Below are positions 8,487 to 14,074 of a stretch of DNA of 64,000 nucleotides, piece by piece; the first letter of the stretch is position 1, and each line of letters begins with the position of its first letter. The stretch comes from an uncultured Flavipsychrobacter sp. Lineage in GTDB: Bacteria; Bacteroidota; Bacteroidia; Chitinophagales; Chitinophagaceae. The DNA lies in the NCBI GenBank assembly GCA_964430995.1, contig CAYSIG010000032.1:1743-65742 (forward strand). Direction: 5' to 3'. The translations under genes were made by a program, and so were the position numbers. The notes beneath the pieces were generated by a model that did no database searches, was not told the origin of the DNA, and saw only the letters and a program-made list of their open reading frames with translations.

Positions 8487-11400
8487 ATGCCGAGACATAT
8501 AGCTTCCCTCTTGTTGCTTGCCATATTGTTTTCCTGCACTAATGAGCAGCATCGTAAAAATGCGTCATTAGGGGTAAGTAAACAAGATACATTTTTACCA
8601 CCACATATAACCATACTTGCAGACCTGCCTGACAGCCTGCAGCCAAAGGTAACAATGCTGGATACTGCACCAAAACCCCGGACGGTAATTGTGCCGACGC
8701 ATGGTAGCTCTTCCTATTCCTTTAAGAACGAAAAAGGAGAAGTAACTAAAATAAACCTGGAGCCCCCTGTAAAAAAAATGCTCCCGGTTTTGCTGAACGC
8801 AAAAGGTGAACCCATAAAAGACAACGCGAGAAATGTGTTTATTATGGGGAAAGGGGGCAAAGGCAACTTCACCAACTTCACCTCCGATGACGGCCTGGCA
8901 TTAGATGCCATCAGCTGCTCAATTATGGATAGGTTAGGAAATCTTTGGTTCGGCACCTTTGGCGGCGGAGTAAGCCGGTATGACGGGAAAACATTCACGA
9001 ACATAACAGTGGCGCATGGACTGGCTAATAATCAGGTGCTGAGCATGGCTGAAGATAAAATGGGCAACATCTGGTTTGGCACTTTTGGAAGTGGCGTATG
9101 CCGTTTTGATGGAAGCACATTTACCACATTTACCACAAAACACGGGCTGGCCAATAACACAATATTAAGTATAGCACAGGACAAAACAGGTAAACTGTGG
9201 TTCGGGACCGGCGGTGGTGGCGTGAGTAATTACGACGGGAAAAATTTCAAAACTTTTTCTACCACTGATGGGCTTGGCAACAATACGGTTATGAGCATAG
9301 CCGAGGATAAAACCGGAAACCTTTGGTTTGCGACTATAGGAGGTGGAGTGAGCCGATATAACCCTTCCACTGCAAAACCATTCATGACCTATACCACGGA
9401 GCACGGACTTGCAAGTAATGTAGTCATCTGCATTTGCCCTGACAGGGCAGGTAATCTTTGGTTTGGCACCTATGGAGGAGGCACAAGCCGCTACGATGGG
9501 AAGCAATTCACCGCTTTTTCAAACATGCACGGGCTTGCTAATAACCAGGTTGTGAATATAGCGGAAGACAGATCCGGGAACTTATGGTTCTGCACAGAGG
9601 GGGGCGGTGTTAGCCGTTTTGATGGGCGCACCTTCACCAGCTTTTCTGCCACGCAGGGATTGGCTAGTAATGCGGTAAAGACCATAACCGAAGATCGACT
9701 GGGCAACTTATGGTTTGGCACCTTCGGGAATGGCGTCAGTTGCTATAACGGGGATGCTTTTACGAATTTCTCCACTGCACAAGGGCTGGCTAATAATAAA
9801 GTGTATAGTATAGAAGAAGATAAGAAAGGTAATCTATGGTTCGGAACAGATGGTGGTGGAGTCAGCTGTTATGACGGTAAGGCTTTCTCTACTTTTTCTA
9901 ATACTCAGGGGATTGCAGACAATACTGTATATAGTATAGCGAAAGACAGGAAAGGAAGTCTGTGGCTTGGCACACACGACGGCATATACCGATATGACGG
10001 TAATTCCTTCATGCATTTTGCAACCATCCAGGGGCTCGCACATAATATGGTTTTTAGTATAGCAGAAGACAAAGCAGGATACTTATGGTTCGGAACAAAT
10101 GGCGGGGTAAGTTGTTATGATGGCAAGTCCTTCACTACGTTTACTGTTGTGCAAGGGCTGGCTAATAACGATGTGAAAGATATAACCGAAGATAGTAAAG
10201 GTAATCTATGGTTTGCCACTAATGGCGGTGGTGTCAGCCGTTATGACGGCAAGTCCTTCGTTACTTTTTCTGTTGCACAGGGTCTTGCAAACAATAATGT
10301 ATATAGCATTACCAGAGATAGAACGGGCAACCTATGGTTTGCCACGGAGGGCGGTTTAAGCGTAGTAAATGTGACCGATTTGGAACAGTTAGACGCTACG
10401 CTTACCCTCTGGCAGGAGAAACCACTTTTCAAAACCTTTACTAAAAAAGACGGCTTGCCCGATGATTTTGTTACCCAAGTACTGCAAATGCCTGGCGGTA
10501 AAATGGCCATAGGCACCAACCAAGGCATTACTTTGTTCAGGCCTTCCGAAGGACTTACTACTATAAATGAAATAGAAGTTTATAACTCCGGCACTGGTTA
10601 TCCGGTAAAAGATGTAAATGTGGGGCAGCATTGCATGCTGCTGGACAGCCGCGGCATCATATGGGCGGGCACAGGCAGCGCGAAAACAGCACTGGTCAGG
10701 TTTGACCCTGCAGCATTGTTTAGTAACACCAAGGCGCCTACCCTGGTCATTAAAAATGTGAAAATAAACCAGGAAAATATTTTCTGGCACGACCTAGAGA
10801 AAGTGGAAAACTGGGAACAGGCCTTGAATGTAGATAGTAATGTCGTCCCGTCATACATCACCGAAGAGGTAACGACCATGGGCAGAACTTTGACCAAAGG
10901 CGAGCGGGATAGCATGAAGAATAGGTTTGGAGATATCGAGTTTGATAGCACAACCCGGATTTACCCTGTGCCGCAAGGTTTGATATTGCCCTATCGCCAC
11001 AATAATATCACCATTGAGTTTAATGCCATAGAAACAGGAAAACCGGAACTGGTAAAGTACCGGTATATGCTGGAAGGCTACGATAATGACTGGAGCCCTG
11101 AGCTAAAGAAAACTAGCGCCACCTATGGCAATATAAGTGAAGGCACTTACAACTTTAAAGTGAAAGCACAGGGCGCGAACGGTATATGGAGCGAACAGGT
11201 AACTTATACATTCAAAGTATTGGCACCCTGGTACAGGGCATGGTGGGCATATATTGGCTATGCCATACTGTTTGTCCTGTCTCTGTTCCTCTTCAGTAAA
11301 TGGCGGGAGCACAACCTGAGGATGGAAAAGGAAAGGCTGGAAAGAACTGTGGAAAAACGTACGGAAGAACTGGTGCAAAAGAACATTGTGGTGGAGAAAC

Positions 11401-12047
11401 AAAAAGCGGAAGTTGAGAATGAAAAAAAGCGTAGCGAAGCCTTATTATTAAACATCTTACCTGAAGAGATAGCGAATGAACTGCGAAGCACCGGAACCAC
11501 TAAGGCAAAACAATATGATAATGTGACCGTATTGTTCACCGATTTTGTAAACTTTACACAAGCAGCAGAGCAGATGAGCCCGCAGCAACTGATTAATGAA
11601 CTGCATGAATGCTTCAGTAAATTTGATGAGATAACAGGCCGGTACAATATTGAAAAAATAAAGACCATAGGGGATGCATACCTGGCGGTAGCCGGATTGC
11701 CAACAGCAGATTCCAGACATGCCGAAAACATGGTGCACGCTGCTATTGAAATAAATGAATACATGCGAGGCAGGAAGGAGAAGCTGGGCAACGCTACTTT
11801 CGGAATACGACTGGGCCTCCATAGCGGCAGTGTGACTGCAGGCGTGGTGGGCGTAAAGAAATTTGCTTACGATATATGGGGTGACACAGTGAACACTGCT
11901 GCCCGCATGGAGCAAAGCAGCGAAGCCGGTAAAATAAATATCTCACAAGTTACTTACGACCTCGTGAAAGATAAATTTACCTGCTCCTACAGGGGCGAGC
12001 AGGATGCCAAAGGCAAGGGATTGCTGAAAATGTACTACGTAGGGTAA
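8487..12047 (+). CDS. Membrane sensor adenylate cyclase: lipoprotein-like N-terminus, Reg_prop beta-propellers, Y_Y_Y domain, TM helix, class III cyclase
   Basis: About 14 D-x-x-G-N-L-W-F-G-T-x-G-G-G-V-S-R-Y-D-G blades; YRYMLEGYDNDW (YYY); PWYRAWWAYIGY TM; cyclase motifs VLFTDFVNFT, EKIKTIGDAY, YDIWGDTVNTAARME. Confidence 0.92.
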   Translation: MPRHIASLLLLAILFSCTNEQHRKNASLGVSKQDTFLPPHITILADLPDSLQPKVTMLDTAPKPRTVIVPTHGSSSYSFKNEKGEVTKINLEPPVKKMLPVLLNAKGEPIKDNARNVFIMGKGGKGNFTNFTSDDGLALDAISCSIMDRLGNLWFGTFGGGVSRYDGKTFTNITVAHGLANNQVLSMAEDKMGNIWFGTFGSGVCRFDGSTFTTFTTKHGLANNTILSIAQDKTGKLWFGTGGGGVSNYDGKNFKTFSTTDGLGNNTVMSIAEDKTGNLWFATIGGGVSRYNPSTAKPFMTYTTEHGLASNVVICICPDRAGNLWFGTYGGGTSRYDGKQFTAFSNMHGLANNQVVNIAEDRSGNLWFCTEGGGVSRFDGRTFTSFSATQGLASNAVKTITEDRLGNLWFGTFGNGVSCYNGDAFTNFSTAQGLANNKVYSIEEDKKGNLWFGTDGGGVSCYDGKAFSTFSNTQGIADNTVYSIAKDRKGSLWLGTHDGIYRYDGNSFMHFATIQGLAHNMVFSIAEDKAGYLWFGTNGGVSCYDGKSFTTFTVVQGLANNDVKDITEDSKGNLWFATNGGGVSRYDGKSFVTFSVAQGLANNNVYSITRDRTGNLWFATEGGLSVVNVTDLEQLDATLTLWQEKPLFKTFTKKDGLPDDFVTQVLQMPGGKMAIGTNQGITLFRPSEGLTTINEIEVYNSGTGYPVKDVNVGQHCMLLDSRGIIWAGTGSAKTALVRFDPAALFSNTKAPTLVIKNVKINQENIFWHDLEKVENWEQALNVDSNVVPSYITEEVTTMGRTLTKGERDSMKNRFGDIEFDSTTRIYPVPQGLILPYRHNNITIEFNAIETGKPELVKYRYMLEGYDNDWSPELKKTSATYGNISEGTYNFKVKAQGANGIWSEQVTYTFKVLAPWYRAWWAYIGYAILFVLSLFLFSKWREHNLRMEKERLERTVEKRTEELVQKNIVVEKQKAEVENEKKRSEALLLNILPEEIANELRSTGTTKAKQYDNVTVLFTDFVNFTQAAEQMSPQQLINELHECFSKFDEITGRYNIEKIKTIGDAYLAVAGLPTADSRHAENMVHAAIEINEYMRGRKEKLGNATFGIRLGLHSGSVTAGVVGVKKFAYDIWGDTVNTAARMEQSSEAGKINISQVTYDLVKDKFTCSYRGEQDAKGKGLLKMYYVG

Positions 12048-12318
12048 AAGGGAATTTTGTACTCATACCTCAGCCCAGTACATTCTTTTATTTAGAAAGC
12101 ACAATAAATTATGAAATTATTATATTTATAGATAATAAATATAATACAAATATTGATTTTGTGGATTACCCGCTGTAGGTTTAGTTACAATTACATATAT
12201 AACTGGTTTGGAATTCATAAATTAAGTTTACTTTTTTTAAATAAGCAGCAATAAATTGTATAGAATAACAAGCACGTTTAATGCAAAATCCTGTTTTGCA
12301 CAGGTATAAAAATGCAGG

Positions 12319-12353
12319 GGCGGAATCCGAAAAGCCGGAAAAATAGAGTAGGA
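12319..12353 (+). promoter_or_regulatory. Conserved leader motif copy 1 (candidate cis-regulatory RNA or operator)
   Basis: GGCGGAATCCGAAAAGCCGGA-AAAAT-AGAGTAGGA, ending 23 nt before the ATG at 12377; 20/21 plus 9/9 identical to copy 2. Confidence 0.6.
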
Positions 12354-12376
12354 AAAACACATTTAACACACACAAC

Positions 12377-12820
12377 ATGAGCGAACAAGAACCATCAGTT
12401 CACGGACATCCCGATGATACAACTTATACATGGTCGGTAATTGTCAAGCCGGCCGGCACTCAAAAGATCAATGCCTTTTGGATGGCGCACATCTGCGACG
12501 ACACAACGCAAAACATTGCTTCGGTCAACGCCGACGGCATTACCTTACTTAATACTTCTATTTATTCATATAGCGGACACGATGATGGCTGGACATTATT
12601 CTACATGGACAGCAACAATAATGTATGGGTGTATAAAGACTACCAGGCCGGTATTGATTCCGGTAGCTATAACGCCCCGGATTACAATGGCTCACTCACC
12701 ATAATGGTGGACCCGAGTGCAAATGCTGCGACACTGGAATTTAGTTATATGGATGGCAGTAAATCTAAAACCGAAAAGTACACCCTTGAACGTTTTGTGT
12801 CATGGACATCCATTTCATAA
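12377..12820 (+). CDS. Hypothetical protein, paralog A of an unrecognised small acidic family (147 aa, no signal peptide)
   Basis: Shares YTW, N(A/G)FW, WT(LF/FL)Y(M/L)DS(N/S)NN(V/L)WV, YNAP(D/E)YNGSLTI and FVS blocks with the next ORF. Conservation at the protein level supports coding status. Confidence 0.85.
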   Translation: MSEQEPSVHGHPDDTTYTWSVIVKPAGTQKINAFWMAHICDDTTQNIASVNADGITLLNTSIYSYSGHDDGWTLFYMDSNNNVWVYKDYQAGIDSGSYNAPDYNGSLTIMVDPSANAATLEFSYMDGSKSKTEKYTLERFVSWTSIS

Positions 12821-12886
12821 GCAACCGTATGGCCTACTTGTACAGGGTCTGAAAGAAGCAGCATGAACACACATGTAAAAAAAGGC

Positions 12887-12918
12887 GGCGAAATCCGAAA
12901 AGCCGGACAAGAGTAGGA
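12887..12918 (+). promoter_or_regulatory. Conserved leader motif copy 2
   Basis: GGCGAAATCCGAAAAGCCGGA-CA-AGAGTAGGA, ending 22 nt before the ATG at 12941. Confidence 0.6.
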
Positions 12919-12940
12919 GAAAATAATAAATACAGAAACA

Positions 12941-13357
12941 ATGGCAGAACAAAATAATCCGGGAGAGGCCCCCACAGAATATACCTGGCAAACAACTATC
13001 CAGACAGCGACAGGTCAAACGATGAATGGTTTTTGGTACTACCTCGTAAGTGGCGACGAAACGTCATCGTCTGCCGTGTTAGGCTCAACCAGCTTTCCGA
13101 GCAGCGCTCCAATTACAACTGAAGGCGGTAGCGATGAGTACTGGACTTTCCTCTACCTCGATTCATCCAATAATTTATGGGTACCTAACGATTGGCAGAC
13201 TAAATATAACGCCCCTGAATATAATGGCAGCCTTACTATCCAGGTGGATACTACAGGCACAATAACATTGACCTTCACTTATTCGGGTGAAGACAGCCCT
13301 TTGGTATACACGATAACCGGCTTCAAGAGTTTCGTTTCGCTCACCGGCAGCGCGTAA
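12941..13357 (+). CDS. Hypothetical protein, paralog B (138 aa)
   Basis: Same conserved blocks as 12377..12820; followed by a strong hairpin. Confidence 0.85.
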   Translation: MAEQNNPGEAPTEYTWQTTIQTATGQTMNGFWYYLVSGDETSSSAVLGSTSFPSSAPITTEGGSDEYWTFLYLDSSNNLWVPNDWQTKYNAPEYNGSLTIQVDTTGTITLTFTYSGEDSPLVYTITGFKSFVSLTGSA

Positions 13358-13395
13358 ATTATTTTGTCGGGCATTGAAATGCAAAAAAATGGATC

Positions 13396-13434
13396 AATAG
13401 TAAATCCCCCGGCAATACCGGGGGATTTACTATT
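13396..13434. terminator. Hairpin between paralog B and the convergent gmhB
   Basis: AATAGTAAATCCCCCGG-CAATA-CCGGGGGATTTACTATT, perfect 17-bp arms. Confidence 0.75.
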
Positions 13435-13495
13435 TAGGGAGTTACCATAAATTATTATAGCTGTTCTGCGGATTTCATCATTGAAAAAACGGGGG

Positions 13496-14074
13496 CTACC
13501 CTACCATCTCAGCGGGAATAAGCCGCGTGGCCCAGGCATAGAGTGAGGAGTATTGCTCATCTATGAGGTCGTGGGGCAGTGAGAAAGGCTCGTGCTTGGT
13601 GGTGAGGAATATGGTGTACATAGAGGCGCGTTTACCAAACTCCATATCGCTGATGCTGTTGCCTATCATCACGCTTTTTTTGAGGTCGATAGCAGGGAAA
13701 TCTTCCTGGGCCTGAAGCGCCATGCCTATGTTAGGCTTGCGGTTATGGTCGTCGTCGGTGACGGCAGTGGCAGCGTATATCTTGTCTATGCGACCGCCAT
13801 TCTCGGCTATTACAGCGCGCATGTTTTTGTTTATGTCCCTGAGGGCATCGAGGGTCATTATTCCCCTACCCACTCCTCTTTGATTGGACACTACAACTAT
13901 GTTGCCGAAAACACGGCTTAATGAGCGAAGGGAATCGAGCACACCATCGTGGAAAGTAAACTCATCCCAAGAGGTGATATATGAACCAACGGATTCTATA
14001 TTGATAACACCGTCCCGATCAAGGAAGAGTGTCCAGCTTTTATCGAATTCGGGTTTATTATTAAGGATATGCAT
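13496..14074 (-). CDS. gmhB: D-glycero-D-manno-heptose 1,7-bisphosphate phosphatase-like (HAD IIIA)
   Basis: LFLDRDGVIN motif I, VVSNQRGVGRG, RKPNIGM, MIGNSISD; adjacent to gmhA. Confidence 0.85.
   Translation of the reverse strand: MHILNNKPEFDKSWTLFLDRDGVINIESVGSYITSWDEFTFHDGVLDSLRSLSRVFGNIVVVSNQRGVGRGIMTLDALRDINKNMRAVIAENGGRIDKIYAATAVTDDDHNRKPNIGMALQAQEDFPAIDLKKSVMIGNSISDMEFGKRASMYTIFLTTKHEPFSLPHDLIDEQYSSLYAWATRLIPAEMVG

Follow-up and report, generated by a model that had tools for sequence, protein, structure and literature searches.

The window, that is, the whole 64-kb stretch of DNA analysed here (64,000 nucleotides from an uncultured Flavipsychrobacter), contains two adjacent paralogous genes whose start codons are preceded by almost the same short leader sequence. 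The locus raises the question of what this shared leader is and what it does for the gene behind it. The longer of its two conserved blocks, the 21-mer GGCG(G/A)AATCCGAAAAGCCGGA, has exactly two matches in the window, both on the plus strand (12319–12339 and 12887–12907); no further match with up to three mismatches was found in the 64 kb, and none was found in 100 shuffles. The shorter block, AGAGTAGGA, likewise occurs exactly twice (12345–12353 and 12910–12918), with 0.2 copies expected by chance. The block pairs span 12319–12353 and 12887–12918 and end 23 and 22 nt before the ATG codons at 12377 and 12941, precisely as the sequence-only reading of this DNA had described. The linker between the blocks is 5 nt long in the first copy (AAAAT) and 2 nt long in the second (CA). 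The same reading had pointed to TTG(C/T)ACAGG upstream of both blocks, and TTGCACAGG and TTGTACAGG are indeed present, at 12296–12304 and 12839–12847. Since the two paralogous proteins share only 40% identity over 98 residues, the leader blocks are far more conserved than the genes that they precede.

A scan of positions 11900–13600 against Rfam 15 identified both block pairs as DUF805b RNA (RF02914), which Rfam classifies as a cis-regulatory RNA of clan CL00115. Both copies cover model positions 1–35 of 35, and both scores exceed the curated gathering score of 35.6 bits (Table 1). The element is thus already catalogued, although the sequence-only reading, which had proposed a cmscan against Rfam, named no riboswitch consensus that it matched. 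No other Rfam family matched the two elements at E values up to 10, and RF02913, the pemK RNA in Rfam, had no match in the window's genome.

The individual features of the family are found in both copies. The P1 hairpin, which closes a 12-nt loop, forms with four of four pairs in copy 2 and with three of four in copy 1, the outer P1 pair of which is a G-G mismatch. The loops, GGAAUCCGAAAA and GAAAUCCGAAAA, fit the family consensus GGAAnCCGAAAA, and the conserved 3' tail AGAGUAGG, which follows a short variable linker, is present as AGAGTAGGA in both. The NCC of the loop can pair with the GGN of the tail (UCC/GGA in both copies), a feature that may not belong to the family definition; the Rfam covariance model of DUF805b includes P1 only. 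Both copies lie in the potential 5' UTR of a protein gene on the same strand, in a member of the Bacteroidota (Chitinophagaceae); for one neighbouring gene, the closest named relatives come from Flavipsychrobacter and Taibaiella. No DUF805-domain gene lies downstream of them, and neither paralog falls into a Pfam or NCBIfam family. The family owes its name to an association with DUF805-domain genes, which members need not show. As compared to DUF805b RNA at large, the window copies show no structural difference apart from the mismatch in copy 1. What sets them apart is that the downstream genes are orphan paralogs rather than DUF805 genes, and that both copies allow a local UCCG/CGGA hairpin, for which there is no conservation elsewhere. 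It is virtually certain that both blocks are ordinary members of the DUF805b family, and the element in the window is conserved and real, but it belongs to a family that is already known. The DUF805b motif was reportedly described in the comparative-genomics survey of Weinberg et al. 2017. The main text of that survey (PMC5737381) does not contain the name DUF805b. Our literature search found no functional study of DUF805b and one mention, in a methods paper, and a search on pseudoknot leaders of Bacteroidetes in translation returned nothing relevant.

Table 1. Features of the paralog locus, in window coordinates.
Feature	Position	Strand	Remarks
Inverted repeat CCTGT-N5-ACAGG	12290..12304	+	13 nt upstream of copy 1
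DUF805b RNA copy 1	12317..12354	+	cmscan 39.9 bits vs 35.6, E 9e-10
Copy 1 P1	12319-12321 with 12334-12336	+	outer 12318/12337 is a G-G mismatch
Copy 1 loop	12322-12333	+	GGAAUCCGAAAA
Copy 1 P2	12326-12328 (UCC) with 12351-12353 (GGA)	+	pairing scheme from covariation in 58 instances
Copy 1 invariant AGAGUA	12345-12350	+	
Spacer 1, 23 nt, A-rich	12354..12376	+	70% A+T; predicted unstructured (fold)
Paralog 1, 147 aa	12377..12820	+	no Pfam, NCBIfam or PDB relative
DUF805b RNA copy 2	12885..12919	+	cmscan 38.3 bits vs 35.6, E 3e-9
Copy 2 P1, 4 bp	12886-12889 with 12902-12905	+	minimum-energy fold is the Rfam P1 hairpin
Copy 2 loop	12890-12901	+	GAAAUCCGAAAA
Copy 2 P2	12894-12896 (UCC) with 12916-12918 (GGA)	+	
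Copy 2 AGAGUA	12910-12915	+	
Spacer 2, 22 nt, A-rich	12919..12940	+	82% A+T
Paralog 2, 138 aa	12941..13357	+	40% identical to paralog 1
G+C-rich hairpin, 18 bp	13396..13434	.	between convergent paralog 2 and minus-strand HAD-like gene

The structure of the element was evaluated in an alignment of 58 distinct instances from 66 loci of related genomes, in which P1 joins columns 3–6 with 19–22 and P2 joins the loop columns 11–13 with the tail columns 36–38. Over the two helices, 95.7% of the cells form standard pairs, as compared to 69.4% in column shuffles. The covariation score was 0.619 versus 0.165 in the shuffles, a level that none of 500 shuffles reached, and the signal collapses once the partners are slid by one to three columns. 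P2 alone is paired in 98.9% of its cells, and its variable pair, 11–38, occurs as GC (31 instances), UA (20), AU (2), GU (2) and CG (1). The pattern by which the instances were picked left this pair and the whole of P1 free, so it could not have created their covariation. The pairing of both P1 and P2, with strong covariation, shows that the DUF805b element is an H-type pseudoknot. From 5' to 3', the conserved parts are P1 (4 bp), L1 (NNAA), the 5' strand of P2 (NCC), L2 (the invariant GAAAA) and the 3' strand of P1, followed by a linker of 0–8 nt, the invariant AGAGUA and the 3' strand of P2 (GGN). The conserved hairpin has the form GGC...GCC around its 12-nt loop, and the invariant GAAAA and AGAGUA are both unpaired.

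The sequence-only reading had favored a cis-acting leader RNA over a promoter of fixed spacing, on account of the unequal linkers in the window, and this view is borne out by the variable linker, measured from P1 to AGAGUA across the instances, and by the covarying pseudoknot helix. The pairing that it had offered as an alternative, between the TCC and the downstream GGA, turned out to be that helix, P2. Its preferred hairpin, TCCG/CGGA with an AAAAGC loop, fared less well: in the 58 instances it pairs at chance level (50.3% of the cells, as compared to 51.0% in shuffles), and at the closest orthologous locus it is disrupted in either leader. Folding predicts it as the energy minimum for copy 1 only, the copy whose P1 bears the G-G mismatch.

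Tandem units were also observed. On the minus strand of another locus of the window's genome (L002, contig C27, 1470–1537), two head-to-tail DUF805b units, 34 nt apart, precede a single gene for a 119-aa Cys-rich secreted protein, and the distal unit has a P2 of GCU/AGC instead of NCC/GGN. A comparable tandem, with units 43 nt apart, occurs in another genome (G116:C806).

The two paralogs of the window directly follow a gene whose 1186-aa product combines Reg_prop/Y_Y_Y sensor repeats with an adenylate/guanylate cyclase domain; the three genes occupy window positions 8487–13357. A PDB sequence search with paralog 1 gave insignificant antibody-like matches only. A search of 400 other sampled genomes of the Chitinophagaceae, four of them from the same genus, recovered no member of the paralog family beyond two weak, domain-like matches to proteins of about 1,075 aa. 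A search of 5.8 billion proteins retrieved one other cluster of these paralogs, at 57% identity. The paralog family is very rare.

The single other cluster resides on a JGI metagenome contig (L071:2-2349), which carries the cyclase gene and the orthologs of paralogs 1 and 2 in the same order. DUF805b is retained ahead of both genes, at 35.2 and 33.1 bits, slightly below the cut-off. The motif, which the sequence-only reading had suggested looking for in the leaders of homologs, is therefore present before both genes at the sole homologous locus found. Between the window and the ortholog, the changes in the element are confined to L1, to the linker just before GAGUA, or to a P2 pair that went from U-A to U-G. 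All of these substitutions fall at variable positions or preserve pairing. Given that they spare the pairing while UCCG/CGGA is lost, the comparison constitutes direct evidence for purifying selection on the Rfam structure at the paralog locus.

Further upstream, the inverted repeat and the TATAAAAATGCAGG that follows it (12290–12316) are conserved in the metagenome ortholog, whereas the sequence beyond them has diverged. Only TTGCACAGG, and not TTGTACAGG, is kept in the ortholog locus, within the CCTG...CAGG inverted repeat. The segment 12290–12316 may be the promoter or operator region of the paralog unit. A similar CCTG-N6-CAGG was noticed ahead of a DUF805b copy in one other locus (L012).

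Across the instances, DUF805b is anchored to the ATG of the downstream gene. Counted from the last base of P2, the ATG follows at a median distance of about 24 nt, and at 15 to 32 nt in 52 of the 58 instances, the spacers are 70–95% A+T, and the element is always on the same strand as the downstream gene. Upstream of the element, no position is conserved except for a few A's, and matches resembling the Bacteroidota -7 box turn up at scattered positions between -60 and -6. DUF805b is also used within operons: in 24 of 55 instances, an open frame on the same strand, at least 90 codons long, ends no more than 150 nt upstream, and in nine it ends no more than 21 nt upstream. These positions indicate that the placement of the element follows the start codon rather than the transcription start.

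The arrangement in the window is of the same kind. Copy 2 begins 64 nt past the stop codon of paralog 1, there is no terminator-like site between the two paralogs, and the G+C-rich hairpin behind paralog 2 is probably the terminator of the two-gene unit, acting bidirectionally. Given these three features, the paralogs are probably carried on a single transcript, with each cistron bearing its own pseudoknot. A test for an intrinsic terminator or attenuator detected no terminator-like site between the motif and the ATG, where the spacer of 22–23 nt is predicted to be unstructured, and no sigma-70-like site was found at the motif.

Matches to the RF02914 model were detected in 116 of 151 sampled genomes of the window's family, with 1–22 per genome, and in 42 of 151 genomes sampled across the phylum. 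The remaining 35 of the 151 family genomes gave no match, and none was obtained in 14 control genomes, including Bacteroides thetaiotaomicron. The window's genome has five matches over the cut-off, and nine copies, on six contigs, when pattern and pairing are used. Besides the window paralogs, its downstream genes comprise a second paralog pair and genes for small Cys-rich secreted, weakly B-lectin-like, DUF2589 and GYD proteins. The second tandem paralogs (L001, contig C29, minus strand) are each preceded by one DUF805b copy, with the motifs at about 1500–1537 and 606–643. One of the proteins has 265 aa and the other is cut at the end of the locus; both start with M..HSITIHQNIG, and neither belongs to a Pfam family. 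Paralog arrays with one leader per gene seem to be a recurring layout.

The cellular downstream genes are mutually unrelated, encoding DUF2589, GYD, rhodopsin and DUF805 proteins, a caspase-like peptidase and a lanthipeptide precursor. When ten of the 58 downstream proteins were scanned against Pfam, one (L056) was a DUF805 protein. In relatives, five loci (L010, L015, L024, L029 and L032) have DUF805b before genes for 60–80-aa peptides with Gly-Gly-type leaders. Of these, the L010 peptide is accepted by the NCBIfam model of class I lanthipeptide leaders, and the other four weakly match bacteriocin-type leaders. Rhodopsin genes with DUF805b were found in L018 and, by sequence, in L043.

The element is used in viral contigs as well. 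Viral contigs searched with the pattern CCGAAAA-N(4-12)-AGAGTAGGNA yielded at least 80 loci. Among the matches listed, 66 of 80 have P1 with at least three pairs together with a complementary third P2 pair, and the ATG mostly lies 16–27 nt downstream. The downstream genes, again among the matches listed, include those for ParB-like proteins, an endonuclease and PHROG families of unknown function.

Shine-Dalgarno pairing plays only a small part in Bacteroidota, and a structured element that is locked to the start codon is therefore a reasonable candidate for an alternative initiation signal. From the geometry we infer, tentatively and with less than even confidence, that the pseudoknot acts in cis on the translation initiation of the next gene, and that this action is positive and directed to the ribosome. 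Four things are taken by inference in this proposal: transcription of the element at this locus, a translational mode of action, whether the effect is positive or negative, and the identity of the partner. Each block would be transcribed within the mRNA leader of its gene, and each leader would fold into an H-type pseudoknot of roughly 35 nt, with a P1 of 3–4 bp and a 12-nt loop, NNAA-NCC-GAAAA. The pseudoknot would be held at a fixed 20–28 nt from the start codon, with an unstructured A/U-rich spacer in between, and would affect, in cis, the start of translation of the gene directly 3' of it. It would be a positive element, the invariant loops of which are recognised by a conserved host component; the most economical partner would be the small ribosomal subunit, or a platform protein of that subunit close to the mRNA exit. 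Both paralogs would retain a copy because every cistron requires an initiation signal of its own. A positive, ribosome-directed role is favored because the partner would be needed in all hosts, because internal cistrons and phage genes carry the element, because the region up to the ATG is unstructured, and because Shine-Dalgarno pairing is little used in this phylum.

Since the window's assembly (93 contigs, 98.65% complete) contains no 16S rRNA, conserved 16S words being absent from it, the rRNA-based tests used a relative. No convincing complementarity to the 16S rRNA of this family member, including its 3' tail, was found: the duplexes obtained were G-U-rich or ran over variable positions, and none was located at the 3' tail. 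A ribosomal partner would therefore recognise the shape of the element or make use of proteins. Given that few genes per genome carry DUF805b, and that 35 of the 151 family genomes and all 14 controls have no match, it is not a general ribosome-binding site. A bolder form of the proposal, in which DUF805b is a Shine-Dalgarno-independent, ribosome-recruiting pseudoknot that serves Bacteroidota and their phages as an IRES-like enhancer, is possible, if somewhat doubtful. If true, an IRES-like pseudoknot would sit about 22 nt before genes that need strong or autonomous initiation, such as peptide precursors, internal cistrons and phage genes, and each window paralog would carry its own DUF805b for that purpose.

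Other explanations have to be weighed against action on the ribosome. The two conserved blocks upstream of genes, and their recurrence before accessory genes, often in tandem arrays, could be those of a DNA-level site, be it an alternative-sigma promoter, a transcription-factor operator or a recombination (cassette) site. However, the blocks are spaced with differences of up to 8 nt, two helices, one of them that of the pseudoknot, are preserved on a single strand by compensatory changes, and the element shares the strand of the downstream gene at a fixed distance to the ATG, also in operon-internal copies. A DNA-level site is thus hardly credible. A two-block promoter of the sigma-70, ECF or Bacteroidota -33/-7 type was likewise rejected, on the grounds of the linker of 0–8 nt, the compensatory changes that keep both helices and the operon-internal copies. 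A signal for mRNA stability or processing, which would protect the message from 5' decay or mark a site of RNase cleavage that separates the cistrons, would agree with the location of the element 5' of each cistron, often between cistrons, and compact 5' structures do stabilise bacterial mRNAs. Stabilisation does not need a tight distance to the ATG, however, and the variable distance to promoter-like boxes implies that the very 5' end of the message is usually not where the element lies, so we consider such a signal rather improbable.

Recognition by a regulator is a different matter, as the invariant unpaired nucleotides and the occasional tandem copies would suit a ligand or a protein sensor equally well. 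An operator for a trans-acting RNA-binding protein, whose binding would be nucleated by the pseudoknot, as in the mRNA operator of phage T4 gene 32, and which would cover the A/U-rich spacer and thereby repress or tune the translation of a regulon made up of the carrier genes, would explain why the bases between the pseudoknot and the ATG are A/U-rich and unstructured, why GAAAA and AGAGUA are invariant although unpaired, and why several unrelated genes per genome share the element, with tandem copies in places. It seems unlikely all the same: no candidate protein is linked to the element, the association with an autoregulatory gene was not seen, and the viral use before many unrelated genes would require the partner in every host. 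A small-molecule riboswitch in the manner of preQ1-I, in which a ligand would stabilise P2 of the H-type pseudoknot and alter initiation, is suggested by the size and architecture of the element, which resemble those of the smallest riboswitches (P1, a loop donating P2 and an A-rich 3' tail), by the many conserved unpaired nucleotides that could line a pocket, and by the tandem arrangements. Against this, the downstream genes have no metabolic theme, ranging from rhodopsin, peptide precursors and secreted proteins to phage ParB-like and nuclease genes; no expression platform is apparent, there being neither a terminator nor conserved pairing to the start region; and no other Rfam family matches the elements. 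We give a riboswitch only a small chance.

For the window itself, the import of these results is small, as a routine Rfam scan labels both copies. If DUF805b acts as an initiation signal, it would be a practical part for expression tools in Bacteroidota. The paralog locus can be regarded as a small natural experiment, in which the genes have drifted to 40% identity and the element has been kept in both leaders, here and in the ortholog.

Among known leader elements, the preQ1-I riboswitch, an H-type pseudoknot of about 34 nt, has the same size and topology as DUF805b, and both are located in 5' leaders. In each, the loop over a short P1 contributes the 5' strand of P2, and the 3' strand lies at the end of an A-rich 3' tail. 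In preQ1-I, P2 hides the Shine-Dalgarno sequence. In contrast, P2 of DUF805b ends about 22 nt before the ATG and sequesters no ribosome-binding sequence, and the window elements neither match the preQ1-I model nor precede queuosine-related genes. The leader of phage T4 gene 32 mRNA and the operator of Escherichia coli rpsO (S15) are small leader pseudoknots that act at initiation. In the gene 32 leader, an unstructured A/U-rich stretch separates the pseudoknot from the start site, and the DUF805b pseudoknot likewise precedes an unstructured A/U-rich spacer. The gene 32 and rpsO operators, however, are gene-specific and autoregulatory, whereas the genes behind DUF805b, across hundreds of genomes and in phages, are many and unrelated; no protein is known to bind it. 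The Shine-Dalgarno sequence is linear and lies about 7 nt upstream of the start codon, whereas DUF805b is structured, lies about 22 nt upstream, serves few genes per genome and has no convincing complementarity to 16S rRNA, as judged with that of a family member. With Shine-Dalgarno sequences and translational enhancers, DUF805b nevertheless shares the essential layout of a cis element that is placed at a constrained distance from the start codon, cistron by cistron.
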